Shown: piece after piece, positions 6,860-40,736 of the stretch
Position numbering within the stretch: the first letter of the stretch is position 1
Layout of the letters: every line of letters starts with the position of its first letter
From: an uncultured Christensenella sp.
GTDB lineage: Bacteria > Bacillota > Clostridia > Christensenellales > Borkfalkiaceae
Assembly (NCBI GenBank): GCA_910578655.1
Contig: CAJTQE010000003.1
Coordinates: 1-44,456, forward strand
Direction: 5' to 3'
Length of the DNA: 44,456 nucleotides
Translations under genes and position numbers: made by a program
The notes under the pieces: model-generated
The model's database searches: none
The model's input: the letters and a program-made list of their open reading frames with translations, nothing else
What the model was told of the DNA's origin: nothing

Positions 6860-6963
6860 AATTATAATATTTTAAATTTTTTTTTAAATTTTGCGTTGAT
6901 TTCATTAAAAAATGTTGTCTTATTATATGAAGATATCTTTAATTTCTCGCAAGGAGCATTAAA

Positions 6964-8281: not shown

Positions 8282-8305
8282 ATAAATTTTATAAGAGGTA
8301 AACTT

Positions 8306-9889: not shown

Positions 9890-9892
9890 ATA

Positions 9893-9922
9893 AAAAGCGA
9901 GGCGAAAAATCGCCTCGCTTTT
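9893..9922. terminator. Bidirectional intrinsic terminator between convergent genes
   Basis: Perfect 12-bp stem AAAAGCGAGGCG / CGCCTCGCTTTT with loop AAAAAT and A/T runs on both sides. It overlaps the spoIIE stop codon. Confidence 0.75.
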
Positions 9923-12188: not shown

Positions 12189-12319
12189 AACTACATTTTA
12201 TAACTTGTGACAGTAAAAAATTTGTCTATTAATAAATCTAAATGTAAAAAATTAAACTAATTTTTTTAATAATAGTCAGTTTAAAGCGCATAATAATTAT
12301 AAACTTGAGTGTTTAATAC

Positions 12320-12348
12320 TTGACTGTTTTTGTATTTTTGTGTAGAAT
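12320..12348 (+). promoter_or_regulatory. Sigma-A type promoter TTGACT-17-TAGAAT
   Basis: TTGACT at 12320..12325, a 17-nt spacer, TAGAAT at 12343..12348, upstream of the Wzz-like gene. Confidence 0.55.
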
Positions 12349-12387
12349 GATATAAAAGAAATTTTAGAATGATATAAAAGAAATTTT
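12344..12387. repeat. Perfect tandem duplication of a 22-bp unit (AGAATGATATAAAAGAAATTTT x2)
   Basis: Copy 1 at 12344..12365 and copy 2 at 12366..12387 are identical. The unit overlaps the -10 box and ends at the RBS (GGGGAG 12388..12393). Confidence 0.95.
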
Positions 12388-12397
12388 GGGGAGTTTT

Positions 12398-16230: not shown

Positions 16231-16251
16231 ATGTAATTTGTCAATAATCTA

Positions 16252-16280
16252 TTGTCAGGCGATATAAAATATGATAGAAT
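16252..16280 (+). promoter_or_regulatory. Sigma-A promoter TTGTCA-17-TAGAAT with extended -10 (TGa)
   Basis: TTGTCA at 16252..16257, a 17-nt spacer ending in TGA, TAGAAT at 16275..16280. RBS GAGGAA and ATG 16344 lie downstream. Confidence 0.5.
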
Positions 16281-16343
16281 GAGTATGCGCGCTTGCGTGT
16301 GAAGAATTACCCGAAAAAATACATCTGTTGAGGAATTGTCCGT

Positions 16344-21959: not shown

Positions 21960-22001
21960 AGAGTAACAAATAAGAAAAGACTGCTGTAATGTTATATAAA
22001 T

Positions 22002-22031
22002 AAAAAAACGGACTTTCAAGTCCGTTTTTTA
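22002..22031. terminator. Bidirectional intrinsic terminator between convergent genes
   Basis: Stem AAAAAAACGGACT / AGTCCGTTTTTT with loop TTCA, flanked by A-run and T-run. The stop codon of the minus-strand orphan lies in the loop. Confidence 0.8.
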
Positions 22032-22762
22032 TTTTGCTCCCATTTAAGCATTTTCATTTCAAAAAGTTTTATGTAGCAGGGGATGATAAATTCAAAACAG
22101 GAGAATAAAGCTAAAATATAGTCTAAACTATCGCAGTCGTCATTTTTAAGGTAAAATTTTCCTTTATTATTTTTAATTAAGCGCATTAAAAACGGTGAAA
22201 TGTACGGCAAATCTTTAATATAACGGTCAATTCTTTTTCCTTGTTTTACTTTTTTAAGCTTAATTGCAATTATAAATTCAGCTGCTATCAAACAGTACCC
22301 GTGCAGAGCATCTCTATCAAAAGATTTGTCAAAATTGCTTTCATTGATTTCCGTATTTATAATTTCAGCAAAAATGGGGTAAATGTTTTTTAAGTAGTTG
22401 TCTATACCGTATTTAAAGGGATATATTTCATTCTCATCTCCATAATACGTTTTGTATTTTGGCGCTTGGGCAAACATATAGTTTATTCTGTTGCAGAAAA
22501 CCAAAAAACACGCCTTATCAAAGTTTTCAATGAAAATGTTGAAATAGTCTTTAATAAAGGTTACTTGTGAAAAATCTACCGCTTTATGTAATTCTAATTC
22601 TACAAAATATTTGTCAAACGGTATAGTGTCGCCTATATTTATCTGCTTAAACGCTACGTTTTCAGCATAATAGTTTTTTATTAAAGTATTTACTTGAATA
22701 TCAGTGAAAACATTTGATTGTTCTTCTATAATCTCACTTTTACTAAACTTTTGTTGTTTCAT
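22016..22762 (-). CDS. Hypothetical protein (AT-rich orphan, no recognisable motif)
   Basis: ORF 22016..22909. Start moved to ATG 22762, which has GGAGAAAA directly upstream on the minus strand. 248 aa, rich in K/N/I/F/Y, no signal peptide. Divergent from the XRE gene. Confidence 0.6.
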   Translation of the reverse strand: MKQQKFSKSEIIEEQSNVFTDIQVNTLIKNYYAENVAFKQINIGDTIPFDKYFVELELHKAVDFSQVTFIKDYFNIFIENFDKACFLVFCNRINYMFAQAPKYKTYYGDENEIYPFKYGIDNYLKNIYPIFAEIINTEINESNFDKSFDRDALHGYCLIAAEFIIAIKLKKVKQGKRIDRYIKDLPYISPFLMRLIKNNKGKFYLKNDDCDSLDYILALFSCFEFIIPCYIKLFEMKMLKWEQNKKRT

Positions 22763-22830
22763 TTTTCTCCTTTGTAAAATGAGGATATTTTTGTAAAAAG
22801 GTATACTGTTGTGGGCTATCAAGCATTTTT

Positions 22831-22844
22831 CCCACAATTGTGGG
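22831..22844. promoter_or_regulatory. Perfect 14-bp palindrome CCCACAATTGTGGG (putative XRE operator), copy 1
   Basis: Located 12 nt upstream of ATG 22857 and overlapping the only purine-rich RBS candidate (GTGGGA). An extra half-site TTGTGGG sits at 22809..22815. Confidence 0.5.
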
Positions 22845-22856
22845 AATATGTTTAAT

Positions 22857-23066
22857 ATGGAAGACAAATTTAAAGACAGACTTAAAGAGTTGAGGCAAGA
22901 TAAGCACATTGGTCAAAAAGCATTGGCAAAAATTTTGAATATCAGTCACGGAGCTATCAGCTTTTGGGAAAACGGACAGCGTGAGCCTACTATGAGTAGT
23001 TTGATAGCTTTGGCTGATTATTTTGATGTTTCAATAGACTACCTTGTCGGCAGAAAAAATGATTAA
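22857..23066 (+). CDS. XRE-family helix-turn-helix transcriptional regulator, copy 1
   Basis: 69 aa starting at the internal ATG (MEDKFKDRLKELRQDKHIGQKALAKILNISHGAISFWENGQREP...DYFDVSIDYLVGR), a canonical Cro/CI-type HTH. The TTG start at 22809 in the ORF track is unlikely. Confidence 0.85.
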   Translation: MEDKFKDRLKELRQDKHIGQKALAKILNISHGAISFWENGQREPTMSSLIALADYFDVSIDYLVGRKND

Positions 23067-26215: not shown

Positions 26216-27160
26216 TTGCATCCCGAACCTATATTTCGTATTTTCGGACAGGGGGTATACCTTTACGGCATTTGTTTTGCTTTGGGCGTAATCGCCTGCT
26301 TCGGATTTCTTATGTTTACGATGTGGTACAAAAAGTTCAGTGAAACTTCGTCAAACGCCATTATATTTATAGGAATAATCGCAACGGCTTTCGGCGCGCT
26401 TTCGGGAATGATTTTTCAGGGCATCTACGACGTTATCGAAGGTAAAGAGTTCAGCTTAAACGGAATGACGTTTATCGGCGGACTTATCGGCGGTGTGGTA
26501 AGCTTTTTGGCTATCTGGAATTTATACGTCTTTGTTATCCGTCCGCATACAAAAATCAAAGCGCTTAAAGGCGAAATGAACGCGGGACTTTGCGACGCGC
26601 TTCCGTTTATACCCATAGGTATTGCAATTGCGCACGCATTCGGCAGATTCGGCTGTTTCTGGGGCGGCTGCTGTTACGGTATCGAAGTTGAGTGGGGTCT
26701 GCCCTGTGCGGCGAATTCTACAAAAAACGTTATGCCTACCCAGCTTTTCGAAATGTCGTTTTTAATTATACTTGCCGTGGTAATGGCGGTAATGTATTTT
26801 AAATTCAAGCTGAATTATAACTTTGCGGTGTATTCGATAGGTTACGGAATTTTCCGTTTTATTATAGAATATTACCGTGCCGACGACAGGGGCGAGTTGA
26901 TAGGACAAATTTCACCTTCTCAGTTTTGGGGTATAGTAATGGTGATTTTGGGTATAGTCTATATCGTTGTGCAATATTTCTATTTGGCAAAGCTTATGAA
27001 ACACCCCGAAAATTCGGTTGAAGTTGAAATTATCGAAGCGGACGGAGAAATCGTTGCGGCGGCGTGTCAAGCGGTTGAAGCTTTGTTAAAAACCGAAGAA
27101 AGCGGTGCGGTTACGCCGGTTGAAAAAACGAATAAGAAAAGCAGGAAAGGCAAAGAGTAA
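26216..27160 (+). CDS. lgt: Prolipoprotein diacylglyceryl transferase with hydrophilic C-terminal extension
   Basis: ORF 26207..27160. TTG 26216 is preferred because AAGGAGG (26201..26207) overlaps the GTG at 26207. Polytopic membrane protein with the GRFGCFWGGCCYG motif seen in Lgt family members. About 50 extra acidic/basic C-terminal residues. Confidence 0.75.
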   Translation: MHPEPIFRIFGQGVYLYGICFALGVIACFGFLMFTMWYKKFSETSSNAIIFIGIIATAFGALSGMIFQGIYDVIEGKEFSLNGMTFIGGLIGGVVSFLAIWNLYVFVIRPHTKIKALKGEMNAGLCDALPFIPIGIAIAHAFGRFGCFWGGCCYGIEVEWGLPCAANSTKNVMPTQLFEMSFLIILAVVMAVMYFKFKLNYNFAVYSIGYGIFRFIIEYYRADDRGELIGQISPSQFWGIVMVILGIVYIVVQYFYLAKLMKHPENSVEVEIIEADGEIVAAACQAVEALLKTEESGAVTPVEKTNKKSRKGKE

Positions 27161-27165
27161 AAGTT

Positions 27166-27188
27166 AAAAGCCCCGTTTCGGGGCTTTT
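27166..27188 (+). terminator. Intrinsic terminator after lgt
   Basis: Stem AAAAGCCCCG / CGGGGCTTTT with a short loop, ending in a T-run. Confidence 0.85.
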
Positions 27189-27276
27189 AGTTATGCGTTT
27201 TCGGTATAATTTATTAAACAAAATATTATTTTACATTATGTGCAATTAATGATAAAATTCAGCTAAGGAGGAAAAT

Positions 27277-27807
27277 ATGAACATTTGGCACGAGATAGAC
27301 CCGAAAAGAATATCAGAAAACAATTTCGAGTCTTTGATAGAAATACCTAAGGGCTGTAAAGCTAAATACGAGCTTGACAAAGAGACGGGGCTTTTGAAAC
27401 TTGACAGGGTGCTGTATACGTCTACCGTATACCCTGCAAACTACGGTTTTATTCCGCGTACGCTTGCCGACGACGGCGACCCGTTGGACGTACTCGTTCT
27501 CTGCAACGAAATCATTTATCCGATGACGCTTGTTGAGTGTATGCCGATAGGCGTAATAAAAATGGTTGACGGGGGCGAATTAGACGAAAAGATTATCGCC
27601 GTACCCGTAAACGACCCCAACTATAAACATTTTTATGACATAAAGGAACTTCCGCAACATATTTTTGACGAAATGATGCACTTCTTCGAGGTATATAAAA
27701 ACCTTGAACACAAAACTACTGCGGTAAAGGAAATTTGCCATAAGTACGAAGCAATAGAAATTATAAGAAAGTGTATACAAAATTATAAAGATAAATACTG
27801 TAAATAA
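27277..27807 (+). CDS. ppa: Inorganic pyrophosphatase (family I)
   Basis: 176 aa, RBS AAGGAGG. Motifs KYELDKETG and YPANYGFIPRTLADDGDPLDVLV. Confidence 0.9.
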   Translation: MNIWHEIDPKRISENNFESLIEIPKGCKAKYELDKETGLLKLDRVLYTSTVYPANYGFIPRTLADDGDPLDVLVLCNEIIYPMTLVECMPIGVIKMVDGGELDEKIIAVPVNDPNYKHFYDIKELPQHIFDEMMHFFEVYKNLEHKTTAVKEICHKYEAIEIIRKCIQNYKDKYCK

Positions 27808-27844
27808 CGACTCCGCCCCGTTAACGGTGTTTTTCATAGAGATT

Positions 27845-27879
27845 AAAGCAAGGACGATAAAAACAGTTCTTGCTTTTTT
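27845..27879 (+). terminator. Terminator-like hairpin after ppa
   Basis: AAAGCAAGGAC ... GTTCTTGCTTT stem with one G-U pair and a 10-nt loop, followed by TTT. Confidence 0.55.
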
Positions 27880-27970
27880 ATTACGGTTATGCTATATTGA
27901 AACTACTTTAATCGGTAATCCGGCGTTTTGACGCCGCAATTATTATACCGACACTTTCAGAGGTCGTAAA

Positions 27971-28639
27971 ATGGCGCAAACAATAAAAAGTTTAAGCGGA
28001 ATGATGCAAGAAATTCAAGTCGAAGGCTTTCAGCTTAAAAAATTGAAAAGAGGACTCTATGCCGGATACAATTTAGCTTATGGCGTTGTAGACGATAAAA
28101 TCGAAACAGGATTTAAAATTCTTTACCAAAAGGAAAATGACCATAATGCAAAAAATTCGATTGAACAAACTATAAAAGATAATATCGAATATGTCAGAAC
28201 AATTAACTTAAACTATTCCCCGAAAGGCAGTTCGCTTATAAAATTAATAGATTTGGAAGGCATAGTTTATTTGGTCGGGTATGAGGTAAACCGCATATCG
28301 ATTGAATTTGAAGTCGATCAATGCAGTTTCGATCACGATGGTATTTTTTACACCCGCGCGGAAGTGAACAAGATGATTAAAAAAGCAATAAAATTATATG
28401 TAAAGAAAGTAAAAATTATTTTGAGAAATAAGCATTTCAAGCTTGAAAGTTATAAACTGCAAGACAAATTTGAACTGATTGATGTCAGTAAAGTTATATG
28501 TGTCCACTATGTAACATTATCGGGAAAAGCGTATGGCAAAGACTGCAATTTTACTATAAGGGACTTTGAAACCGAAAATATCAGAAAACGATTAAAAATC
28601 GAACTTAATAAAATGAAAAAGGAGAAGTTTTCAAAATAA
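27971..28639 (+). CDS. Hypothetical protein (AT-rich orphan)
   Basis: 222 aa. RBS-like AGAGG 7 nt upstream. No signal peptide, TM segment or recognisable motif. Lys-rich C-terminus. Bracketed by terminators. Confidence 0.6.
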   Translation: MAQTIKSLSGMMQEIQVEGFQLKKLKRGLYAGYNLAYGVVDDKIETGFKILYQKENDHNAKNSIEQTIKDNIEYVRTINLNYSPKGSSLIKLIDLEGIVYLVGYEVNRISIEFEVDQCSFDHDGIFYTRAEVNKMIKKAIKLYVKKVKIILRNKHFKLESYKLQDKFELIDVSKVICVHYVTLSGKAYGKDCNFTIRDFETENIRKRLKIELNKMKKEKFSK

Positions 28640-28696
28640 AAGGCTGCCTTTATGTCATTGTACAATAAATTTCTTACCGTTCCGCATAAAAAAAGT

Positions 28697-28735
28697 ATAG
28701 CGCACTAATCTTCGCAAACGAAGATAGTGCGCTAT
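28697..28735. terminator. Bidirectional terminator between the orphan gene and the LysR gene
   Basis: 17-bp stem ATAGCGCACTAATCTTCG / CGAAGATAGTGCGCTAT with a single bulged A and loop CAAA. A-run upstream, T-rich downstream. Confidence 0.75.
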
Positions 28736-28772
28736 TTCTTTGTCCGCAAGAAAATCTCTTTAAAAGATATTC

Positions 28773-29672
28773 TTACGGGGCGGTTTTTTCCTTGAGTGCC
28801 TGTATCGTCTTTATAAGCAGCCGTGAAGCGTTGGTGTGGGGGTGATGAGGGTCGGTTATCATACATATATGCCGTTCGGGCGGCGGTGTTTCAAGATTTA
28901 TGCGGAAAACTTCGCCGCGCGCGATTGCGTCCTCCGCCATAGGACGGGGAACGAACCCCAACCCGAAATTATGGCTTATCATAGGCACTATCAAATCTGC
29001 GCCGTCAGCCTCTATGTCCGGTGTTACGGACAAACCGTGCTCGGTAAAAATATCGTCAAGGAATTGCCGCAGCTGCATACTGTGCCGCAGACTGACAAAG
29101 GGATAGTCCTTTAAATCGGAAAGTTTAAAGAGCTTGTCTTTGAGATTTTCAAAATTTTTACCGGCAATCAAAATGTCGTCGAAAGCTTTGATTTTAAGCG
29201 TGTTAAGAGTTTTTGACGGATTGCACGGCGTTGAAACGAACGCCAAATCCACGATGCCATTTTTGAGTTTTTCAATCGTTCCGTTGCTTGAACCGGAGTT
29301 GATTTTAAATTTGATGTTGGGGTGCACGGAATGAAATTTGTCAAGAAAATCAAATAAAAATCCATGGAGGGCGGTTACTGTTGCGCCGATATAAATCGTC
29401 CCTGTTTCCGTGCTTATTGATTTGCTTACTTCGTCCTCGCCTTTCAAAAGCTGGCTGTGGGCAATGTTGACGTAATTAAAAAGCGTTTGCCCCTCGTGCG
29501 TGAACTCAACTCCGCTTTTCGTTCTGACGAACAGCCTGCAACCGAGTTCGGTTTCCAGATTCTGTATCGCCCGCGTTACGGCAGGCTGGCTTGAATAAAG
29601 CTCTACCGCCGCGCGGGTTATATTTTTATGCTTTCCGACATAATAAAATATTTTGTAGTATTCGTAGTTCAT
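28773..29672 (-). CDS. LysR family transcriptional regulator
   Basis: 299 aa. N-terminal HTH FYYVGKHKNITRAAVELYSSQPAVTRAIQNLETELGCRLF plus a substrate-binding domain. Divergent from the malic enzyme gene. Confidence 0.9.
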   Translation of the reverse strand: MNYEYYKIFYYVGKHKNITRAAVELYSSQPAVTRAIQNLETELGCRLFVRTKSGVEFTHEGQTLFNYVNIAHSQLLKGEDEVSKSISTETGTIYIGATVTALHGFLFDFLDKFHSVHPNIKFKINSGSSNGTIEKLKNGIVDLAFVSTPCNPSKTLNTLKIKAFDDILIAGKNFENLKDKLFKLSDLKDYPFVSLRHSMQLRQFLDDIFTEHGLSVTPDIEADGADLIVPMISHNFGLGFVPRPMAEDAIARGEVFRINLETPPPERHICMITDPHHPHTNASRLLIKTIQALKEKTAP

Positions 29673-29823
29673 ATGCGTTGCCCCGTCTGTATTATGTGTT
29701 TTTGTTATGATAAATATATGATATTATTATTTTACATTATATCAGCAATGGTTTATAATGTAAATAAAAAATGAAAGAAATTATAAAAAAAAGAAAAATT
29801 TTCACTTTTTTTTGGGAGGGACC

Positions 29824-31002
29824 ATGAATTATAGAGAAGCTTCGCTTAAAAAGCACACAGAGTGGAAAGGTAAGATAGAAACGGTTGCAAGAGTACCCGT
29901 AGACAGCAGAGAGGCGCTGTCGCTTGCATATACGCCCGGCGTTGCCGAACCGTGTATGGCGATTCACGCCGACATAGAAAAATCGTTCGAGCTGACGAGG
30001 CGGTGGAACACCGTTCCCGTAATAACGGACGGCACGGCTGTTCTCGGGCTGGGCGACATAGGCCCCGAGGCCGGTATGCCCGTAATGGAGGGCAAGTGCG
30101 CTCTGTTCAAGGCGTTCGGCGGAGTGGACGCATACCCGATATGTTTAAGGACTAAGGATACCGAGGAGATTATAAACACTATTAAGATAATGGCCGGCTC
30201 GTTCGGCGGAATAAACTTAGAAGATATTTCCGCGCCGCGCTGCTTTGAAATCGAAACGCGGCTTAAACGCGAGCTTGACATACCCGTATTCCACGACGAC
30301 CAGCACGGAACGGCTATCGTTTCCGCAGCCGCGCTTATAAACGCCGTAAAGCTTGCGGGCAAAAAGCTTGAAAGCATAAAGGTAGTAATCAACGGCGCGG
30401 GCGCGGCAGGCATTGCGATAGGCAAATTTTTATTAAAGCTCGGCGTGAAGGACGTAACTTTATGCGATTTGAAGGGCATCGTCTGCGACGGCAACGAATG
30501 GCTTAATCCCGCGCAAAGCGAAGTGGCAAAGATAACCAACCTTTCGAAAAAGCAAGGCAAGCTTGCCGACGCAATGAAAGGCGCGGACGTGTTTATCGGC
30601 GTTTCGGGTCCGCACTGCGTAACCAAAGAAATGGTTGCGTCGATGGCGGAAAAATCAATTCTGTTCCCCTGCGCAAATCCGGTTCCCGAAATAGAGCCTG
30701 AGGAAGCAAAGGCGGCAGGGGCGTATATCGTAGGCACGGGCTCGTCAGAGCATCCCAACCAGATAAACAACGTGCTGGTATTCCCCGGTCTTTTCCGCGG
30801 CGCGCTTGACGTGAGGGCAACCACCGTTAACGACGATATGATGATAGCTGCGGCAAGGGGCATTGCAAGCTGCGTTTCGGAAAAAGAGCTTGCGCCCGAT
30901 TACATTCTGCCTTACGCTTACGACCAAAAGGCTCACGTTTGCGTTGCAAAGGCTGTTGCGGAAGCGGCGGTAAAAACGGGCGTTTCGAAACTGCATAAAT
31001 AA
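29824..31002 (+). CDS. NAD(P)-dependent malic enzyme (short form)
   Basis: ORF 29812..31002. Start moved to ATG 29824, with GGGAGGG 4 nt upstream. Motifs LAYTPGVA, VITDGTAVLGLGDIG, FGGINLEDI, FHDDQHGTA, NGAGAAG. Confidence 0.9.
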   Translation: MNYREASLKKHTEWKGKIETVARVPVDSREALSLAYTPGVAEPCMAIHADIEKSFELTRRWNTVPVITDGTAVLGLGDIGPEAGMPVMEGKCALFKAFGGVDAYPICLRTKDTEEIINTIKIMAGSFGGINLEDISAPRCFEIETRLKRELDIPVFHDDQHGTAIVSAAALINAVKLAGKKLESIKVVINGAGAAGIAIGKFLLKLGVKDVTLCDLKGIVCDGNEWLNPAQSEVAKITNLSKKQGKLADAMKGADVFIGVSGPHCVTKEMVASMAEKSILFPCANPVPEIEPEEAKAAGAYIVGTGSSEHPNQINNVLVFPGLFRGALDVRATTVNDDMMIAAARGIASCVSEKELAPDYILPYAYDQKAHVCVAKAVAEAAVKTGVSKLHK

Positions 31003-31041
31003 CACGGCAAAAATTTTATCATATACCCCCTATGATAAAGA

Positions 31042-31065
31042 GGTAATGCGCTGACGCGCATTACC
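31042..31065 (+). other. Perfect 10-bp stem-loop immediately upstream of the RBS of the next gene
   Basis: GGTAATGCGC tgac GCGCATTACC. There is no T-run after it, and GAAGGA plus ATG 31076 follow directly. A second inverted repeat, TTATCATA / TATGATAA, lies just upstream (about 31015..31038). Confidence 0.5.
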
Positions 31066-31075
31066 CGAAGGAATA

Positions 31076-31882
31076 ATGATGAAAAGAAAATCTGCAATAG
31101 CAATGCTGCTTTCGCTGTTGATAGCTATGCTTTCGGTTACGTTTCTGTTTTCTGCCTGCGGCAAGGATGAAGTCAACGGGAAAACTGCGAAAGTATTGTT
31201 TATCGGCAACAGTTTCACTTTTTACAGCGATATTCCGGATTTGTTTGAAAAGATAGCGTCAGGCGCGGACAAAAATGTGTTGGCGGACAGCGTAACGCAA
31301 AGCGGTTGTACGCTTGAAAAGTTTGCCGACTCCGACAGCGAACAGGGCAGAAGAGTCGACGCAAAACTGAAAGCAAACAACGACTATGACGCAATTGTTT
31401 TACAGGAACACAGTACGCGCCCGATAAGCGACTACGACGCATTTTTAGCAGGCGCGAAAGGGTTGCAGAAAAAAATAAACGAAACGCAGAAGCACTGCCG
31501 GATATATCTGTATGCGACTTGGGGCTATAAAAGCGGCGCGGACGCGAGAGGAATAACCGTACGGGAAATGGAGGCGCGGCTGCGCTCTGCGTACGCCAAG
31601 GCGGCAAAGGAAATGGGCGTAAAGGTGTGCAACGTCGGTGCGGCGTTTACCAACGTTTCGGAAAATCATCCGCAACTTAACCTGTATTTTGCGGCAGACA
31701 ATAAGCATCCGTCCTATACAGGCGCGTATTTATCGGCTTGCGTACACGCGGCAACCATTTTAAATATCGACCCCCGTACTTCGTCCTTCAACGGCGTGCC
31801 CGCGGATGATAAAGACAGAGTATTCGCAACCGAATACGCAAGAATTTTAAAAGAAGAAGCTTTTGCCGTAGCTAACGGCTGA
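31076..31882 (+). CDS. Lipoprotein, SGNH/GDSL-like hydrolase (DUF4886-like)
   Basis: Signal peptide with lipobox LFSAC. KVLFIGNSFTFY (block I Ser), LQEHS, and DNKHPSYTGAYLSA (DxxH block). Confidence 0.6.
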   Translation: MMKRKSAIAMLLSLLIAMLSVTFLFSACGKDEVNGKTAKVLFIGNSFTFYSDIPDLFEKIASGADKNVLADSVTQSGCTLEKFADSDSEQGRRVDAKLKANNDYDAIVLQEHSTRPISDYDAFLAGAKGLQKKINETQKHCRIYLYATWGYKSGADARGITVREMEARLRSAYAKAAKEMGVKVCNVGAAFTNVSENHPQLNLYFAADNKHPSYTGAYLSACVHAATILNIDPRTSSFNGVPADDKDRVFATEYARILKEEAFAVANG

Positions 31883-31905
31883 TATAAAAAAATTCGGAGG
31901 AAATT

Positions 31906-33231
31906 ATGAAAAAACACTTAATGGCGGCGTTGCTTGCAATTGCAATGTGTTTGGTGGCTTTTTCCGGCTGTTCGCTTGTCAGCGGTCTTGAACGCGACGT
32001 TCAGGTTGTTTTAAAAGTAAACGGTGAATATAAAGGCACTTACACTGTAAATGCATTCAACAATGCGGTGGTTCCCGTGCCTGACGCGCCCGAAGGGCTT
32101 ATATTCTACGGCTGGACCGCCGAAGAGAATTGGGAAGAGCAGGGCGCACAAAACGTACGGGTTACTGCAAATAAGGGACTTATTCGTTACAACGACGTGA
32201 AAGATTGGATAAAGAACGACGAACTCAGCGTGACTTTATATCCCGTATTCGGCGAACCGCCCTATCACGACGTTGCGATAGCCTGGTACAACAAGGAAAA
32301 AACTTCGGGACTAAATCAGTCGATAATAGACGGATTTACAACCGAGCTTTACGGGTTCTTAAAGACAAGCGGTAAAAACCCCGAAGAGATGGACATAGTT
32401 ATCCGCTCCTACGAGGGCAACGTAGGGCCTACCTGCGAAGCGATAAAAAACGACGCCGATATCGACATAATGCTCGGCTGGAAGGACGCCGAAAATCTTA
32501 CGGGTACGGGCGGAATGAAACCCGGCAAGGACTTTGTTGAAAACAACTTCAATATTTTCGTCAACCCCGACTTTAAGGATCCGCGCGGTGTAGCAAAGCT
32601 TGTTGCCGGAGAGGAAATCGTAGATTTGGTATATGACTGGATTCTCGATACGTATGCAGGCGAGGGCGGAGCCACGCTCGACTATCAGTGGGACGGCAAG
32701 CCCGTCGACCCCGAAGAGCCCGACGAACCCGAAGTTCCCGATAAGCCTCAAAGCGGTATAAAGTACACGGTAGGTGCAGACGACGACTTGACGTTTAAAG
32801 TTGCCTGCTACGGCGTATTTGATACTTCGGGCTTTACCGACGAAATCAAGGCAAATTTCGAAGCGGGTTTAAAGGCGGCTTTGAAAGAGTGCGGTGCGTC
32901 GGACGAACAGCTTGCGCAGGTTGAAGTCGAGTTCTATTGTTATAAGCCTTCGGGTTCGGGCAGTGCGGATGACAATACGAACATTGCGGGGCTTGGAGAT
33001 GCAATTGAAGCCGACGGCGGAGCGGACATTCTTTTAGGGGCGAGGGGGGTTGGAAAATCACCTTATCTTAAAGAGTGGAGTAAAACCGGATTAACTTCAA
33101 AAGAAATGACTATCGGTTCAATCAATGACAGATACGTTATTACGTCTAACAAGAAAGGGCTTACTGTTGCAATTTACGACTGGATACTTTCGGCTGAGGG
33201 GCTGGCGCTGCTGGCTACGCCCACGGTGTAA
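31906..33231 (+). CDS. Lipoprotein with N-terminal Listeria-Bacteroides-type repeat and two tandem copies of an unknown module
   Basis: Lipobox AFSGC. VNGEYKGTYTV...PDAPEGLIFYGWT resembles the Flg_new/InlB B-repeat. Two internal modules share TSG(L/F), D(I/A)DI(M/L)LG and YDWIL motifs, joined by a Pro/Glu linker. Confidence 0.55.
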   Translation: MKKHLMAALLAIAMCLVAFSGCSLVSGLERDVQVVLKVNGEYKGTYTVNAFNNAVVPVPDAPEGLIFYGWTAEENWEEQGAQNVRVTANKGLIRYNDVKDWIKNDELSVTLYPVFGEPPYHDVAIAWYNKEKTSGLNQSIIDGFTTELYGFLKTSGKNPEEMDIVIRSYEGNVGPTCEAIKNDADIDIMLGWKDAENLTGTGGMKPGKDFVENNFNIFVNPDFKDPRGVAKLVAGEEIVDLVYDWILDTYAGEGGATLDYQWDGKPVDPEEPDEPEVPDKPQSGIKYTVGADDDLTFKVACYGVFDTSGFTDEIKANFEAGLKAALKECGASDEQLAQVEVEFYCYKPSGSGSADDNTNIAGLGDAIEADGGADILLGARGVGKSPYLKEWSKTGLTSKEMTIGSINDRYVITSNKKGLTVAIYDWILSAEGLALLATPTV

Positions 33232-33243
33232 GGAGGAAAGAAT

Positions 33244-35706
33244 ATGTATTTGAAAAGTAAATTTTTAAAAGCAAGTTCCATTTGCCTTTACGTTTTCACC
33301 GCGCTTTGGTTCGTGCTTGCGGCAAGCTTCTTCGCGCTGTCAAACAACTGGTATTGGGCGTTCCTCATATTCGCGCTTGTCGGTCTTTATGACGGGTTCG
33401 TTATAACTTCCGTGCGCCAAAAAATGAAGAGCGTAAATCTTGAAAAAAACGAAAACGTCAAACTGCTTGTCTGCTGGATACTCAGCATAGTATGTCTGCC
33501 GGCGTTCATTCTCTCGGGCTTAGCTTATTTCCGCAAAACGGAGGACGAAATTATTGTCTGCAAAACCGTTGAAAGCGAAGTTAAGGAAGAGGAGAAGCCC
33601 GTCAGAAAATCACCTTTCTATAAAGCGAAAAGCTTTATTACGATGTGCGTTGCCTTCGGCCTGATTATCGTTTCAAGTTTTACCGCACTGTGTTTTGAAA
33701 CTTCCGGCTTTAAGGTGGACGTTTCCGACTTTACGCTGACGCGTGAAATGACACTTGCGTATAACGAGGGTAAAATTCACGGCAAACAGTATGTAATTCC
33801 CCTTACGGTTACGGACGACGGCAAGGAGCACGAAACTACTTATTCGGTAACTATGTATAAACCCGACAGTGCAACGGCGGAAGCTCCTGCGCCCGTAGTG
33901 TTCGTTCTTCCCGGATTTACCCGTACCAAGGCGACTATGGCGCAGTACTGCATAGAGCTTTCACGCCGCGGCGCGGTAGTGTTCTGTTCAGATCCGGGCG
34001 GTCAGGGCGGTACAACCGAAAATTCTTCGACGGGCGCACACGGTATCGAGTATCTCGTTCAGTACGTTTACAATAACACGGACGATTTTACATTCTGCGA
34101 TAAGCAGCGTTTCGGTGCGGTAGGTCACTCGCAGGGCGGCGGCAACGTTGTTACCATTGCCTCCGATATGGCAGGCGAAAGCTATCAGGACAGCATAATA
34201 AAATCCGTTTACAATTCGGGTTATATAAAGACTTCCGCGGCAAACAAATTTAAAAATTTCAACTGCAATGCGGCAATGTCTTACGCATATTACGACGAGG
34301 GCGCGTACCGCTATCAGACCGATGGTACCGCATTCGAGGTAATAGGACTTCGCTTTATCAACGAAGTCAACGGTTCGGCTAACGCGTACGATACCATTAC
34401 ATACGACTACGGTTACGGCGATATGTCCAAGGGTACTTACAGAATAGTACACCGCGAAAAAATAAACCACTGCTTTGAAATGTACGACAGAGTCAGCATT
34501 GCAAACACGGTAGATTTCTTCAATAAGACTCTTGACATCGGTTCCGACGTGAGCGGTATGAGCCAGATTTGGTTCGGCAAAGAATTTTCAAACGGTATCG
34601 CGCTTGCAGCGGCGTTCACGTTCATAATCGCGCTTTGCGCAGTGCTTATGAATATTCCGTTCTTTGCAACCCTGAAAAACGGCGGCAAGGTTAAGGCGGC
34701 AGAAACCTCCGCAGACGGCGAAAACGCAACGGGTGAAGCGGCCGTCGCTGCGGCTGTAACGGCAGAGCCTATGCAAACGGTTGCGGCGGCAAAACCTGTT
34801 GTTGCGGCGGAGCAGCGGCATAAGACTGTGGCGCATAAGATTATTTTCTGGTCGTGCATAATATTGACCTCGATAATCGCCTGCCTTGACTATATCCCCC
34901 TTGCAAACCTTTCGATTGAAATTTTCCCCACAAGCAACCTTGCAAGCGTGTTCACGTTCGTATTCCCTGCAAGAATGGTTAACGCCATACTGCTTTGGGC
35001 GGTTATAAACGGACTTATCGGTCTTGCGATATTCTTCGGAACTACCGCGCTTGAAAACCTGTACGAGTACGCTATGTACAAGGTGAAGGGTATTCAGCCG
35101 CACTACGACTGGGATAAATTCTCGGATATCAAAATCCGCGGTAACGGCCGGAAAAACGTAGTATTCAACGTATTGAAGAGTTTACTGCTCGGTTTCGGTT
35201 TATTCGGTGTGTTCTACTTCCTCGTTCAGCTTTCGTACTGGATATTCCATCAGGATTTCAGATTTATGCTTATCTCTGCGGCTCCGCTCAATGCAAGAAT
35301 GTTCGTAACCGCGCTTGAATATATCCCGTTCATCTTTATATTCTATATTTCAAACTCTATAAGGGTCAATTGCAGTATAGGCAGAGAGGGCTGGAAAGAG
35401 TGGAAGGTTATGCTTGTCGGCGGTCTTGCAAACAGCTTGGGGCTTGCGTTCATACTGCTTATAAACTATGTTTGCTATTTCACGACGGGTATTCCGTACT
35501 ACGGCAACTGGGGCAGCGGAAACAACGAAGTCTGGTTGTTCGTCAATATGGTTTTCGGACTTGTGGTTATGATGTTTATTCTTCCCATATTCAACAGACT
35601 GTTCTACAAGATAACGGGCAACGTATGGGTCGGCGCAATAGCTTGCTGTTCGATATTCGTAATGATGACGATTTCCGCGTCCGTTTCCTATATACCTATG
35701 TATTAA
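33244..35706 (+). CDS. Polytopic membrane protein with extracytoplasmic alpha/beta-hydrolase domain
   Basis: 820 aa. N-terminal TM helices, a hydrolase domain with nucleophile elbow GHSQGG, an Ala-rich linker, and a C-terminal block of about 8 TM helices. Confidence 0.6.
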   Translation: MYLKSKFLKASSICLYVFTALWFVLAASFFALSNNWYWAFLIFALVGLYDGFVITSVRQKMKSVNLEKNENVKLLVCWILSIVCLPAFILSGLAYFRKTEDEIIVCKTVESEVKEEEKPVRKSPFYKAKSFITMCVAFGLIIVSSFTALCFETSGFKVDVSDFTLTREMTLAYNEGKIHGKQYVIPLTVTDDGKEHETTYSVTMYKPDSATAEAPAPVVFVLPGFTRTKATMAQYCIELSRRGAVVFCSDPGGQGGTTENSSTGAHGIEYLVQYVYNNTDDFTFCDKQRFGAVGHSQGGGNVVTIASDMAGESYQDSIIKSVYNSGYIKTSAANKFKNFNCNAAMSYAYYDEGAYRYQTDGTAFEVIGLRFINEVNGSANAYDTITYDYGYGDMSKGTYRIVHREKINHCFEMYDRVSIANTVDFFNKTLDIGSDVSGMSQIWFGKEFSNGIALAAAFTFIIALCAVLMNIPFFATLKNGGKVKAAETSADGENATGEAAVAAAVTAEPMQTVAAAKPVVAAEQRHKTVAHKIIFWSCIILTSIIACLDYIPLANLSIEIFPTSNLASVFTFVFPARMVNAILLWAVINGLIGLAIFFGTTALENLYEYAMYKVKGIQPHYDWDKFSDIKIRGNGRKNVVFNVLKSLLLGFGLFGVFYFLVQLSYWIFHQDFRFMLISAAPLNARMFVTALEYIPFIFIFYISNSIRVNCSIGREGWKEWKVMLVGGLANSLGLAFILLINYVCYFTTGIPYYGNWGSGNNEVWLFVNMVFGLVVMMFILPIFNRLFYKITGNVWVGAIACCSIFVMMTISASVSYIPMY

Positions 35707-35710
35707 ATTT

Positions 35711-35737
35711 AAAGAGGGGTTTTCAGACCCCTCTTTT
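35711..35737 (+). terminator. Intrinsic terminator after the hydrolase operon
   Basis: Stem AAAGAGGGG / CCCCTCTTT with an 8-nt loop, followed by T-rich sequence. Confidence 0.85.
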
Positions 35738-35811
35738 AATTTTGCGCGTATAATGCCTTAAAATATTCACAAACTCATTGTATGGGCGGTTTCGCCTAAA
35801 TAGGAGAAAAT

Positions 35812-36354
35812 ATGAAAGCAACAGGAATAGTACGCAGAATAGACGAATTGGGCAGGGTGGTAATTCCGAAGGAAATACGCAGTACTCTGCGCCTCAAATC
35901 GGGCGACCCTCTCGAAATATTTACGGACAGGGACGAGCTGATGCTTAAAAAGTATTCGCCCATTGCTTCGCTTGATAAATTTTCGTCGGGAACGGCGAAA
36001 TCGCTGTCCGACCTTTCCGGTCATATTGCGGTTATTTGCGACACTGACGAGGTTCTTTACGCTTCGGGCAGGGGACAGCGCGCTTTCGATAAAAAGAGTC
36101 TTTCAGAAAAAATGGAAAAGATTTTACGCGAACGCAAAAGCTATATCGCCAACCTTTCAGAGGGCGGCGACGTTATTCCCATTACCGACGAGGGCGACGG
36201 CGTAACGGCTCAGATTATAGTTCCCATAGTCTGCAACGGCGACTGTCTCGGGGCGGTTGCACTCGTTTCCGTCGAGCAGGGCGCAAAGATAGAGGCTTCT
36301 GCCTGCAAGTTGGCTCAGCTGTCGGCAACGATACTTGCAAATCAATTCGAGTAA
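35812..36354 (+). CDS. spoVT: Stage V sporulation protein T (AbrB-family regulator with GAF-like domain)
   Basis: 180 aa. N-terminus MKATGIVRRIDELGRVVIPKEIRSTLRLKSGDPLEIF is the SpoVT/AbrB swapped-hairpin domain. Length matches SpoVT. Confidence 0.9.
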   Translation: MKATGIVRRIDELGRVVIPKEIRSTLRLKSGDPLEIFTDRDELMLKKYSPIASLDKFSSGTAKSLSDLSGHIAVICDTDEVLYASGRGQRAFDKKSLSEKMEKILRERKSYIANLSEGGDVIPITDEGDGVTAQIIVPIVCNGDCLGAVALVSVEQGAKIEASACKLAQLSATILANQFE

Positions 36355-36369
36355 GCTTTAAAAACCTAA

Positions 36370-36406
36370 GCCGCAGGGCGCTTCTGCATGCGTCCTGCGG
36401 CATTTT
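36370..36406 (+). terminator. Intrinsic terminator after spoVT
   Basis: 11-bp stem GCCGCAGGGCG / CGTCCTGCGGC with one G-U pair, followed by ATTTTGT. Confidence 0.7.
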
Positions 36407-36439
36407 GTATAAATTATGGTATTTATTTTATAAAAATGG

Positions 36440-36468
36440 TTGAAACCGCGTAAAAACTATGCTATAAT
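36440..36468 (+). promoter_or_regulatory. Strong sigma-A promoter TTGAAA-17-TATAAT with extended -10 (TGc)
   Basis: TTGAAA at 36440..36445, a 17-nt spacer ending in TGC, TATAAT at 36463..36468. It is followed by RBS AGGTGA (36478..36483) and ATG 36489. Confidence 0.65.
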
Positions 36469-36488
36469 TTTGTGAACAGGTGATTATT

Positions 36489-39400
36489 ATGTTGAAAAAT
36501 ATAGCAAACACAAAAAAAATAGGGGGGGGGGGTACTCCACTTGTAGTATAAGCCGCGGCAAACGCCTTTGGCTTACTTTAATACTGACCTTTTTATGTAC
36601 GGCTTTATTGGGCTGTACTTTTTTGTTGCCAAATACGGTAAAAGCCGAGGGCGGCGAGGAGCCGGTGCAATTAAACTGCACTTACGCGGTTGACGGCGGT
36701 TCGCAAAAGTTTTTCTATCTGTATCGCTCAAGCCCTATTGACGTTAAATTCGGGGCCGAATCAAGTTGGGCTACGGGTCACAATTTGTACGCCGCCTTTG
36801 ACGAAACTTCGAAAAACACGCTCGTTTTCGGGACTTCAAGCAGTACTTACGAGGGTAAAGGTGTTTATACGGAATTTACCGCAAGCATCGCAGTGCCGGC
36901 AAGGCAGGAATACGTCGTTAACTACAATATGAACTTTTCTTCCGTTAGAGGTAATTATATCGATTCGGGTATGGGGTTCGAATTGTTCGATTACGGTTAT
37001 TCGAACGATACGGTGACCGCGCCTACGGCCAAAACCGTATCTGACGCGGCGATGGCGGAAGACCCTTCGAAGGACCTCTTTATCGGGTACAGCGAAAGCA
37101 GAATAGGCACTTCTGTTTACGACCCAAACGGAATTAAACCCGAGTATTCCGTATTTTTTCAGTATAGCAGCGGCGGCGACGGTGGCGTTGTCGGTACTAA
37201 GGATATTCAAGCTGTTTATGCCAATAAAACAGACGCGCCCCAAACATTTACTCAGCGTTTCGGGCTTTGGACGGGTCTCGGTTACGGTTCGTCAAATCCT
37301 TCAACGATTAACGGCCAATGCATTATAACGCCGACGCTTGTTTCGGAGGAGACGCTGTTTTACAGTGCACCTAAGGCGGTTACCGTGGAATACGACGGTA
37401 CGGATATGCTCAATCCGCTAAGCACGGCGATAACGTCTGCGGACTGGTACGTCGACGGGGGAATGGTTTTCAGCTGCGCCGATACCGTCAAGGAAAGCGG
37501 AACATATACCGTTACCGCGTCGCTGTCCAACGCGGCGCTAAACGACGGTGTGCAATGGCTGCTCGGCGACGGGACGAAAACGACGGACGACCAGACTTTT
37601 ACGTTTACCGTAACGCCGATAGTCATTACCTCGCCTAAAAACTCTGTAATCACGACGGAATACAACGGCGCGGAGCAATCGTTGAAAACGCTTGCCGATA
37701 AACCCGCGTGGTACGACCAGAGCGTATATTCGGACCCGTCTATAATAGAAATCAACGATAAGTTTACGGACGCGGGGTCTTCTACCGTCAACGTAAAGCT
37801 TGTTTCGGGAAATTATGCGTGGAGCGACGGCGAAAGCAATTCTTCCGACACGCGTTCGTTTACGTTCAAAATAACGGCTAAGCCGCTTTCCGTAATATTC
37901 GAAGAGCAAAACGGTTTGACCGTTGCGCGCTTTGAGGACGAAAGCCAGATTTACGGGCGCGATACGGGCGATAAATATCCCAAGCTTAAAACCAAATATT
38001 ATCAGCCGGGGGACAGTCCCAACAGTGCGGTTGAAAGTCCGACGCGCGTCGGACAATGGATTGCGCTTGCCGCGCTTGAAAATGCCGCCGCTTGTAATTA
38101 TTCCGTCAATGCTGTTTCCGACGAATTTACTGTTTCTAAAATCGTTACCCCGTATCCTGTTTTGACGGCGGGAGGCAGCGCTACGGTGCCGTACAACGGC
38201 AACGAGCAGGAGTTTGTATTCGAGGGTTACGACGGCGAAATAATGGAATACGTCGTGCCGGAGGGAGCAATCAGCTTTGACGGCGCCACGCTGACAGTCA
38301 AGGACGCTGGCGAGTACGCAATAGAATACAGATTAAAGGACGAAAGCCTGTACGAGTGGAGTGGGGGAACGGGCTTAAGCATAAGCGTAGAGAAAAAGAA
38401 GATAGTAATAGTTTCGGACGAGAGTAACGCAACGGAATGGTCAAAGGGCGCGGACGTGGAATTAAAGTTTCGGGTTACTGGACTTGTAACGGGAGACAGC
38501 GTAAAGCTTGAAGCTACTTACAGTAAGGGCGGGTCGGGGACTTCGAAGCTTGTAGTAACGGACAACGGAGACGGAACTCAAAGCGTAACAATCCCCAAAG
38601 GCTACGGCACGGGGGATTACGTGCTAACGGTAAAGACCGCCGAGGTCGGGAACTATATCGAGCGAGAAGCGGCAACTCATTCGTTCAGGATAACGGCGGA
38701 AGGGTTAGACTTAGGCGAGAACGAAATCAAGTGGAAGATAGACGGCAAGAGCTATACGATAGAGGACTGCAAGGACGGCTATCTTGAATTGGAGTATACG
38801 GGCAAGGCGTTTAGCCTTACGGTAGACATCAATTCGAGCGCGAGCGCTGCGGAGCTGGAAATAGAGAGCTACGGCGGAGACTGGCAGACTGCGATAAACG
38901 CAGGCGAGTATACGGCGACGGTGCATATCGTAGCGTCAGACCCCAACCTATACAGCTTTGACGAGACCTACACTTTAAAAATAAGGATAGTACCGAAGGT
39001 CCTCGATTTTAGCGAAGCGACGTGGGAATGGCAGTACGCGGGTGATAGCGACTGGCAGGCATTGAAAGAAGGTAGTATGCCGTCGTTCGATAACCGAGCG
39101 GTAACGGTGAGAATCTCACCCGAGTACTTTGCGGGAATAGGATTAAAAGATGGCGAGTATACGGTAGAGTACCGCAACAACAACGACCTTACCGAAAAGG
39201 GCGAAAAGAGTACTACTGCAGAGATAACGATAAGTAACGGCAATTACACTACAGCGGACGGCGGATATGCAGAGGTAAGCAAGCAGTGGGAGATAACTGC
39301 TAAGTCTCTTGAATATAACTGGACTGGCAAGCAGACAGTAACGGCTGGAGAAAACACGTTCGAATTTGCGGCAATAGAGTTTGCGGACGGCGGGGACTAT

Positions 39401-40681
39401 TCGGGCTTTTTCGAGTATTACTTCACCGTGGACGGAGAAGAGGGAGAGTTCACAAAAGAGGAGCTTGAAGCGTATATATCCGAGCACTGGACGGAAACTA
39501 CGGCTATAACGGGCAAGGTATACGTACGCCAGACGGTAAGCGACGGAGAGGTGGTAATATCTCCGAGCTACCGCAGCTTCACAACGGGCACGCCCAAGAC
39601 CGCGCTTACGGTAGCGATTAGTTGCGAAGAGAACGCTGAGTACGGAAAGGTCAATTTCGGTTTCGAGGTCAAGAGAGGCAACTCGGACGAGCGGACGAGA
39701 ACGGAAGTGAGAATAAGCGGCGGAGCTTTGGAAGAGGAAGTAGTCTTTGCGGGCGACAGCTCGGAGCTTACGGCGTTTATAAACGGATTAGGCGCAGGCG
39801 AGTATAAGATAAAAGTAACGGTAACGGTCGAAAACAGCGAAACGTACGTAGTAACGGGCGATAACGAATACAGACTTATAATAGCCAAGAGAAAGGTAGA
39901 GCTGCCCACGCTGAAAGAGGGAATAACCTATAACGGCGGAGTAATCTATTTCAAGGACTGTATCGAGGGCTACGACGACAGTATAATGACGATACTCGGC
40001 GAGAGTGACGGCGGAATAGACAGCGGCACGGACTGGCGCGAGCAGGGTTATTATACAAAGATACGGCTTATTGACGGCGACAACTACGAGTTTGGCGAGG
40101 GAGTAAGCGAGTACGAGTATAACTGGCATATCGGCAAATTTATAATAACCGAGGATACGTGGAACAAGAGCGGGAAGGAGGGAGCGTATCTCGATTTGCC
40201 GGACTGGGTAAAGGGACTGCTGAGAGACAGCAAAGTTCTTAAACTTGAATACAGTTATTACTTGGACCAGTACAGCGACGCGCTTGAAAGCGTGGAGTTC
40301 GTAAAGGGCAGTTCGTTATACGTAGACGCGAAGCTTTCGGGCAGTGCGGCGGTTAACTTCGAGTTCGAGAACGGCAGCGAGGAGGACGGAGTACAGACCT
40401 CGGCAAAGACGCTTTACACCGTGCCCAAGGGCAGCGGCGCGGGCGAGTTCTTCGAGGATATAGGCGAGTTCGTGAAAGGCAACTACTGGGTAGTGATAGT
40501 AATAGGCATAGGCTTATTGCTGTTGATACTAATAATAGTCTTAGTAAGCCGCAGGCGCAGGCGCGCGGACGACGATTACTATGACGAAGACTACGACTAT
40601 GACGACGACGAAGACTACGACTATGACGACGACGAAGAAGACGATGAGGACGAAGAAGAAGATTACGACGATGATTATTGA
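36489..40681 (+). CDS. Large repeat-rich cell-surface protein (about 1397 aa if restored), frame interrupted at the G11 tract
   Basis: ATG 36489 reads MLKNIANTKKIGGGG and then stops at 36549 as sequenced. The long frame is open from 36476 and encodes the missing signal peptide (KRLWLTLILTFLCTALLGCTFLL, possible lipobox LLGC) before the track start at TTG 36608. Downstream are a ~240-aa unique domain, about 10 Ig-like repeats (YNG/YDG...GEYT patterns), a C-terminal TM helix, RRRRR, and a D/E/Y tail. Confidence 0.7.
36522..36532. repeat. G11 homopolymer, preceded by an A8 run, inside the 5' coding region of the surface protein gene
   Basis: Counted directly: 11 consecutive G at 36522..36532. 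A tract length of 12 or 9 would join ATG 36489 to the long ORF. Confidence 0.95.
40583..40630. repeat. Tandem 24-bp repeat GACGAAGACTACGACTATGACGAC x2, plus a partial third copy
   Basis: 40583..40606 and 40607..40630 are identical, and the next 8 nt continue the unit. Encodes DEDYDYDD twice within the acidic tail. Confidence 0.9.
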
Positions 40682-40684
40682 TTT

Positions 40685-40715
40685 AAACGGTCACCCGGTT
40701 TTCGGGTGACCGTTT
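40685..40715 (+). terminator. Terminator hairpin after the surface protein gene
   Basis: Perfect 13-bp stem AAACGGTCACCCG / CGGGTGACCGTTT with a 5-nt loop. The T-run is short. Confidence 0.7.
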
Positions 40716-40736
40716 GCGTACTTATAATAATATGCA

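Follow-up and report, generated by a model that had tools for sequence, protein, structure and literature searches.

The window analysed here, a stretch of 44,456 bases from an uncultured Christensenella sp., contains a giant gene of about 4 kb whose 5' coding region holds an uninterrupted run of 11 guanines (the poly-G tract; G11, with other lengths written likewise). The region studied extends approximately over positions 36355..40735 of the forward strand, between spoVT (35812-36354) and a gene for a spoVB/yabM-like flippase (ATG 40769), itself followed by yabN/mazG; SpoIIE and other sporulation genes are also present in the window. The GTDB species representative with this gene is 'uncultured Christensenella sp. 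isolate MGBC101977', from a mouse gut catalogue (Bacillota, Clostridia, Christensenellales). An initial annotation of the window had taken the tract for a candidate phase-variation switch. Alleles are called ON below when the tract length joins the upstream start codon to the large open reading frame (ORF) and OFF when it does not, and the alleles compared fall into four types, A to D. The features of the 5' control region are as follows.

36370..36401, forward strand: intrinsic terminator after spoVT, 12-bp stem with 10 GC pairs, then a T-rich tail
36440..36468, forward strand: sigma-70-type promoter with an extended -10 element (-35 box TTGAAA at 36440-36445, 17-nt spacer, TGcTATAAT at 36460-36468)
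36478..36483, forward strand: Shine-Dalgarno sequence AGGTGA, 5 nt upstream of ATG 36489, read directly
36489..36521, forward strand: start codon and N-terminal extension MLKNIANTKKI; the ON alleles P0005 and P0011 begin here
36512..36519, forward strand: run of eight adenines (A8) directly 5' of the G tract; A7 in types C and D, A10 in L009
36522..36532, forward strand: poly-G tract, G11 in the window (an OFF length), starting 33 nt past ATG 36489
36544-36546 and 36549-36551, forward strand: wrong-frame stops, TAG (frame of G10 and G13) and TAA (frame of G8, G11 and G14) respectively, from tract-length simulation
36533..36646, forward strand: rest of the predicted signal peptide in the frame of the large ORF, with basic n-region SRGKR, 21-residue h-region and c-region PNTVKA, from sequence features

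The promoter matches the consensus at 11 of 12 positions, carries the upstream TG in addition and is the best promoter-like site of the region; since the terminator at 36370-36401 lies upstream of it, it opens its own transcription unit. A scan of 36300-36750 against Rfam returned sub-threshold noise only, with no known riboswitch or leader. In the window, the frame of ATG 36489 translates as MLKNIANTKKIGGGGTPLVV and ends at TAA 36549 after 20 codons. The frame of the large ORF is open from 36476, right after TGA 36473, and encodes YSTCSISRGKRLWLTLILTFLCTALLGCTFLLPNTVKA, followed by EGGEE, between the tract and TTG 36608; 5' of this TTG it contains no ATG, GTG or TTG, and only the non-canonical ATA 36548, ATA 36581 and CTG 36584. 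G11 cuts ATG 36489 off from the signal peptide and from an ORF of roughly 1340 codons. Simulation of tract lengths from G8 to G14 on the window gave proteins of 1396 aa for G9 and 1397 aa for G12, and peptides of 18-21 aa only for G8, G10, G11, G13 and G14. The anatomy drawn in the initial annotation was thereby recovered in full: its promoter, ribosome-binding site, ATG 36489, A8, G11 and TAA 36549 all lie where it had placed them, translation confirmed an ORF open from 36476 that encodes the otherwise missing signal peptide, and the absence of a canonical start upstream of 36608 was borne out. Its expectation that a tract of G12 or G9 would bring ATG 36489 into frame with the signal peptide and the remainder of the protein agrees with the simulation and with the natural ON alleles described below, and its assignment of G11 to the OFF state with the short simulated peptide.

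The tract is singular for its surroundings. It is the sole G or C run longer than six in the window, where the next longest is of 6, and no other G or C run reaches 8 in about 180 kb of related loci. The expected count of a G9 pattern is 0.11 per window, and the observed count was reached in 0 of 100 dinucleotide-preserving shuffles. GGG is the rarest glycine codon among the genes of the window (10.8%), and the ORF has 14 other Gly-Gly pairs, none of them written GGGGGG; it is therefore the run of nucleotides that is maintained, and not just a Gly-Gly-Gly peptide.

Tract lengths were compared among 16 non-redundant assemblies from several projects that include the 5' region, the window being one of them. 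They were gathered from a look-up of identical SpoVT proteins (13 contigs), from a 16-member protein cluster at 90% identity and from contigs encoding members of this cluster. Neither metagenome_contigs nor genome_contigs gave a match when scanned for patterns from the type-A flanks, because the species representative carries a type-B flank, and protein-based scans led only to loci already in the set. The exact look-up of the product starting at TTG 36608 was likewise empty, because gene callers use TTG 36623 or GTG 36665 instead. The lengths in the assembly consensus sequences were distributed as follows.

G9 (2 assemblies): L013, ON; L022, in-frame length with a TAA directly after the tract
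G10 (8 assemblies): L005, L006, L014, L015, L016, L017, L019 and L021, OFF
G11 (4 assemblies): the window, L001, L018 and L020, OFF
G12 (1 assembly): L012, ON
G13 (1 assembly): L009, coverage 2.6x, OFF

Both predicted ON lengths thus occur in public assemblies. L012 (GCA_949747155.1), with G12, encodes the uninterrupted protein P0005 of 1389 aa, whose N-terminus is MLKNIIGKNKKIGGGGY (MLKNIIGKNKKIGGGGYAPYSVSHGKCLWL…), and L013 (GCA_910576655.1), with G9, encodes the likewise uninterrupted P0011 of 1385 aa, with the N-terminus MLKNIANTKKIGGGY (MLKNIANTKKIGGGYAPYSV…); both proteins begin MLKNI…KKIGGG(G)Y, from the predicted ATG. Tract length also differed between alleles showing no single-nucleotide polymorphism (SNP) over about 4 kb, namely L013 (G9) against L014-L017 (G10), and the window and L001 (G11) against L006 (G10). 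A multiple alignment of 15 alleles over 4.25 kb showed the tract to be the sole non-triplet, frame-breaking indel of the coding region, the remaining coding indels being all in frame and confined to the N-terminal extension and the acidic tail. The A8 run is a possible secondary slippage site, its variation being minor. The comparison of related genomes that the initial annotation had proposed as a check has therefore been run, and its interpretation of the tract is supported by the G9-G13 polymorphism, the pairs without SNPs, the presence of both ON alleles and an ORF under selection (see below). We consider it very probable that the G tract is the switch of a phase-variable (contingency) gene operating by slipped-strand mispairing.

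Several observations weigh against this conclusion. The gene is ON in only two, perhaps three, of the 16 assemblies, which is below the one third expected from unbiased drift; G10 is the commonest length and tracts of G12 or longer are few, and the low ON share could reflect a mutational bias to G10, selection for the OFF state or non-independent sampling. Some assemblies may share samples or a mouse facility, so that the count of independent observations is uncertain. The lengths were taken from assembly consensus, and long G runs are a known weak point of Illumina sequencing, on which they are error-prone. Four assemblies (L001, L015, L018 and L022) show a substitution 1-4 nt past the tract, and their consensus is therefore locally unreliable. 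These last points, together with the low coverage of the G13 assembly, would also suit an artefact, in which the real tract length never varies and is in frame (G9 or G12), the protein is expressed constitutively and the length differences are homopolymer errors. However, lengths out of frame (G10, G11 and G13) were found in 13 of the 16 assemblies with the 4-kb ORF intact, G10 and G11 being dominant, and consensus errors would have to outnumber the truth. Moreover, a similar pattern recurs in an unrelated, distant protein cluster (see below), and the bases substituted next to the tract are exactly those that reads with one G more or less would bring in, which mixed populations explain at least as well as random error does. 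The assembly length error that the initial annotation had offered as its alternative is disfavoured by these counts and by the differing alleles without SNPs, and we regard it as very unlikely.

The substitutions next to the tract lie at position 6722 of L001, 542 of L015, 258 of L018 and 1371 of L022. In four cases out of four the new base matches what is expected in that column from reads whose tract differs by one G in either direction, the chance of each match being about one third to two thirds; this is a weak test, with which mixed tract lengths within samples are consistent. Dislocation mutagenesis was considered as another source of these substitutions and rejected, since the base changes do not fit it. 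The substitution in L022 creates the apparent TAA stop of this allele, which is probably an artefact.

The state of the coding region bears on whether the OFF alleles are simply broken genes. In every allele whose contig reaches the stop codon the ORF is open over 1340-1352 codons, and in L005 and L006 it is open up to the contig end. Ratios of nonsynonymous to synonymous substitution rates (dN/dS, Nei-Gojobori method) between the four allele types were 0.13-0.23 at dS of 0.03-0.19, comparisons between two OFF alleles included (window against L019); the sequence comparison thus indicates that the ORF is under purifying selection. The 15-allele alignment revealed no second disabling lesion in the OFF alleles across about 4 kb. 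A plain pseudogene, decaying after a frameshift in the G run and with the ON alleles as intact ancestors, would account for most assemblies being out of frame and for the dispensability of the gene, which is absent from several strains. It is contradicted by the intact ORF of OFF alleles and by their low dN/dS, and further by the preservation of the tract, which is not interrupted. The OFF state was moreover found in at least three diverged allele types, and type B has ON and OFF alleles at 0 SNPs, so that this single site must have changed repeatedly and recently. Among the outcomes that would count against its proposal, the initial annotation had named a pseudogene fixed out of frame and carrying further lesions; this is accordingly disfavoured, and we judge decay of this kind very improbable.

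The arrangement of the 5' region is conserved between the allele types even where they are diverged, type D (L019) being separated from the others by a dS of about 0.18. The -35 box, the TGnTATAA of the -10 element, ACAGGTG and the ATG are invariant in types A-D, as are the succession of A run, TA and G run and both wrong-frame stops (TAG and TAA). The promoter spacer, the upstream DNA, some codons of the extension and the bases neighbouring both stops are variable. The signal-peptide stretch 36533..36646 is nearly invariant.

These comparisons also bear on a further explanation, according to which the tract lies in a short upstream ORF without control over the large protein, whose translation would start at ATA 36548 or TTG 36608. 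In the G11 state the 20-codon ORF does end at TAA 36549, overlapping an in-frame ATA (ATAA) from which MSRGKRLWL… could be read. A start at this ATA by termination-reinitiation was nevertheless rejected, since the codon is GTA in types B, C and D, which removes the downstream-start model. Starts at TTG 36608 or TTG 36623 lose most of the h-region and have no Shine-Dalgarno sequence, and the downstream starts chosen by gene callers all truncate the signal peptide. ON alleles, by contrast, read through from the upstream ATG, and distant relatives keep that N-terminus. The probability of an uninvolved tract appears negligible. In OFF alleles, automatic gene calling places the start at TTG 36623 or GTG 36665, which gives products of 1326-1352 aa with the signal peptide lost; public catalogues therefore list the family as non-secreted hypothetical proteins.

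The switch would operate as follows. Transcription would start from the strong extended -10 promoter and ribosomes would initiate at ATG 36489, read MLKNIANTKKI and then translate the G tract as glycine codons. When the tract is a multiple of three (G9 or G12), they would read on through the signal peptide to the end of the protein (about 1,390 aa in all), which would be exported and held by its C-terminal transmembrane helix, a possibly glycan-binding N-terminal beta-sandwich being shown on a stalk of beta modules. At other lengths, translation would stop after 18-21 codons at the conserved TAG or TAA, and no protein bearing a signal peptide would be made. The tract lies inside the predicted cleaved signal peptide and both ON lengths should therefore yield the same mature protein. 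Slippage during replication would be the mutational process, changing the number of G far faster than point mutation; the change would be reversible within a clone, so that each population would consist of ON and OFF cells, and immunity, phage or niche may be the selective agent.

Correction at the RNA level, either by polymerase slippage on A8/G11 or by ribosomal frameshifting, would leave OFF alleles with a low constitutive expression and make the tract a dimmer. G11 after A8 would in principle be long enough for such slippage, which is however best documented for A/T runs and not for G runs. Frameshifted genes of Buchnera are rescued by transcriptional slippage on long homopolymers, according to work cited in PMC2831843. 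Length variation at the DNA level was observed directly in our case and is sufficient alone. As an explanation, RNA-level correction is in our view very unlikely; it is possible as an addition to the DNA switch and not as an alternative to it.

Relatives of the giant protein are few. An exhaustive HMMER search of 1.84 billion representative proteins retrieved only 49 related clusters; a word-indexed search of a 5.8-billion-protein database with the reconstructed N-terminal 551 aa gave no match, not even the protein itself. At 28-50% identity, relatives including P0016, P0018, P0022, P0048 and P0038 share an N-terminal plan consisting of Met, about 10-11 residues, GGG, about 10 residues, a basic patch and a hydrophobic core of the form LWLSLILSFLCAxLLCCAFLL. 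The tracts of such distant members were deduced from protein sequences only. Several representatives start within or past the signal peptide, as expected of OFF alleles called from a downstream start, and in two relatives (P0017 and P0019) the glycine run is interrupted; these may be locked-ON variants.

One distant cluster at 90% identity holds several states of the same N-terminus, with SIGGGY in P0038 and P0068, SIGGGGY in P0067, the shifted upstream frame NLNQYRGGGY in P0065, and P0066 and P0069 beginning inside the signal peptide. A single DNA sequence for the N-termini of both P0038 and P0065 must read …AGTAT[A/C]GGGGGGGG…, that is, with a run of at least 8 G. The behaviour of a switch is therefore seen independently in a second gene, which probably belongs to another species. 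For both P0064 (1355 aa, full N-terminus) and P0021 (1218 aa, starting past the signal peptide), the ENA contig reported has a length of 27,408 nt; the two may be adjacent paralogues, one ON and one OFF, of a single contig. The C-termini of the family, compared in P0020, P0026, P0030, P0032, P0022, P0033 and P0038, are of at least two types. The first has a transmembrane helix, poly-Arg and an acidic D/E/Y tail, as in the protein of the window, and the second ends in conserved motifs such as PMPVDDGRVFDVGGFY or DxDGFYD.

From these protein sequences, the tract seems to be conserved across an undescribed family of giant surface proteins. Conceivably, and we advance this tentatively as somewhat short of probable, a tract about 11 codons past the start, immediately ahead of the signal peptide, is the ancestral, family-wide control of these proteins (lectin-like tip, C-terminal membrane anchor) in Christensenellales and related uncultured gut Clostridia, with several independently switching paralogues per genome, which would form the first repeat-based 'phasome' of gut commensal Clostridia.

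Beyond its signal peptide, the giant protein of the window comprises the following parts.

36647..40483, forward strand: predicted extracellular part, with an N-terminal beta-jelly-roll domain followed by repeated small beta modules (AlphaFold2 model of residues 1-420)
40484..40564, forward strand: C-terminal transmembrane helix YWVVIVIGIGLLLLILIIVLV, then the stop-transfer sequence SRRRRR (translation)
40565..40681, forward strand: acidic Asp/Glu/Tyr cytoplasmic tail of 38 residues and TGA stop, with in-frame length polymorphism

Searches of the giant protein against Pfam, NCBIfam and PDB sequences gave nothing above threshold, apart from a borderline match of the transmembrane region to NCBIfam NF041738 GG_III-CTERM (22.1 bits for a cutoff of 22); DUF4469 Ig-like, Big_13, MBG_3 and Invasin_D3 matched below threshold only (E 0.003-0.14). 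An AlphaFold2 model of mature residues 1-420 (pLDDT 74.5, parts below 50) displayed the N-terminal beta-jelly-roll and then small beta modules. The top Foldseek matches were Bd1399, CBM61, CBM16, legume lectins and tailspike domains, with probabilities up to 1.0 and target-normalised TM-scores of only 0.3-0.44. Binding of glycans by the N-terminal domain is, on this structural model, a hypothesis only. The signal peptide includes a possible lipobox, LLGC. In the acidic tail (40565-40678), indels of 3, 27 and 33 nt between alleles occur in GAC/GAA/GAT/TAC repeats, making it a second, frame-preserving hypervariable site.

Three assignments to known classes of surface protein were considered and rejected. 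Sortase anchoring does not apply, as there is no LPXTG motif and the C-terminus consists of the transmembrane helix, RRRRR and the acidic tail. The Y-S-[VI] segment loosely resembles YSIRK, but the reconstructed ON N-terminus, P0011, P0038 and P0016 have no match to PF04650 at E<=1. Finally, no Pfam match to PilC or Opa was obtained.

The giant gene is part of a larger unit, bounded as follows.

36355..40735, forward strand: accessory cassette of promoter, giant gene and terminator, present or absent between strains
40685..40715, forward strand: terminator hairpin after the giant gene, AAACGGTCACCCGGTTTTCGGGTGACCGTTT, with a perfect 13-bp stem

With terminators on both sides (36370-36401 and 40685-40715), the giant gene is monocistronic. 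Five loci (L002, L003, L004, L007 and L008) have the same spoVT and flanks 98.8-99.3% identical, and lack the cassette; their homology to the window breaks off at 36354 and starts again at 40736, the two flanks being separated by an unrelated GC-rich spacer of about 156 bp. Since spoVT runs straight to the flippase gene in some strains, the 4.4-kb unit is a strain-variable accessory cassette. The spacer occupies 6544-6699 in L002, L004 and L007, and 6544-6825 in L003, where about 126 bp of it are duplicated in tandem. At the cassette junctions, neither direct repeats nor a recombinase were observed.

Compared with the window, L005 and L006 show 28-38 SNPs in 10.8 kb, the tract being the sole gap. 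These SNPs cluster left of about 34600 (27-37 SNPs), with 0-1 SNPs over the cassette and its left flank (33700-40612 against 29812-33700), a pattern suggesting that the cassette was recently transferred by recombination, or swept, between strains. The homology of L019 to the window spans only 36419 to 40635, that is, promoter and gene; its neighbourhood (1-1500 and 5480-6981) is different, with a gene for a radical-SAM/HemN-like protein (SAM, S-adenosylmethionine) upstream and unrelated small genes downstream.

Elsewhere in the window, 13864-21959 encodes a HelD/UvrD-like helicase (13864-16230) and then a DUF4011/AAA_11/AAA_12/MTES_1575 protein of 1871 aa, which matches the anti-phage protein ProA at 1459.8 bits, below the cutoff of 1500, and also matches Hhe; it is likely a defence gene. 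Patches of low GC content (7001-10000, 12001-13000, 22001-23000 and 27001-29000; 30-39% against about 48% elsewhere) hold a sigma factor of the extracytoplasmic function type (6964-7491), a weak peptidase_C39-like protein (8306-9889) and several ORFs without family match, and may be horizontally acquired islets.

Comparison with known contingency systems places the switch among classical ones. In Neisseria, pilC (poly-G) and opa (CTCTT repeats) carry their repeat in the region coding for the signal peptide, and their ON lengths give the same mature surface protein, of adhesin type. They are closest to the gene of the window in placing the repeat inside the cleaved signal peptide, but they encode Gram-negative outer-membrane or pilus proteins and have no sequence relationship to it; in the gene of the window the tract precedes the charged n-region of a Gram-positive-type signal peptide, and the protein has a C-terminal transmembrane anchor. 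In tract type and length, the closest analogues are the poly-G/C loci of Campylobacter jejuni (capsule, lipooligosaccharide and flagellar modification), where an intragenic run of about 9-11 G switches frame by slippage (PMC8355987). As in our data, several tract lengths occur per species, with the mode at G9-G10 there and at G10 here, and the targets are surface structures (PMC8355987). Switching rates in C. jejuni are 1e-4 to 1.6e-3 per division, and its tracts come to rest at G9-G10 (PMC8355987). The differences are that C. jejuni belongs to Campylobacterota and is without mismatch repair, whereas the present host belongs to Bacillota/Christensenellales, that the proteins are unrelated, that about 30 such loci occur per genome against one tract in about 180 kb here, and that the rates were measured in C. 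jejuni.

Within Bacillota, the closest analogue is the 5' poly(A) tract of inlA in Listeria monocytogenes, a surface protein gene with a homopolymer a few codons past the start, in which frameshifting leads reversibly to a very short peptide (PMC2831843). It differs in its A7 tract, against G9-13 here, and in a much lower switching frequency; InlA is a protein with leucine-rich repeats and LPXTG, whereas the protein of the window has neither LPXTG nor known domains. The invertons of gut commensals (Bacteroides, some Clostridia) are alike in the stochastic ON/OFF expression of surface structures (PMC11892184). They differ in relying on site-specific inversion with inverted repeats and a recombinase, whereas the variable element here is a homopolymer; no recombinase gene adjoining the giant gene was found, and no search was aimed at inverted repeats.

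Studies of phase-variable gut commensals centre on invertons and epigenetic switching, and our literature searches yielded no report of tract-mediated phase variation in Christensenellaceae or gut Clostridia. It is well supported that the mechanism matches classical poly-G contingency loci, its novelty lying in a gut lineage for which none has been described. Few gut taxa are linked to host genetics and leanness as consistently as Christensenellaceae, and to our knowledge hardly anything has been reported on the surface that they offer to the host, phages and other microbes. A giant surface protein that is both strain-variable and phase-variable is a candidate for immunoglobulin A targeting, for a phage receptor or for glycan adhesion, and the length of its tract could be read from existing mouse-gut metagenomes as a marker of the ON/OFF state of populations.

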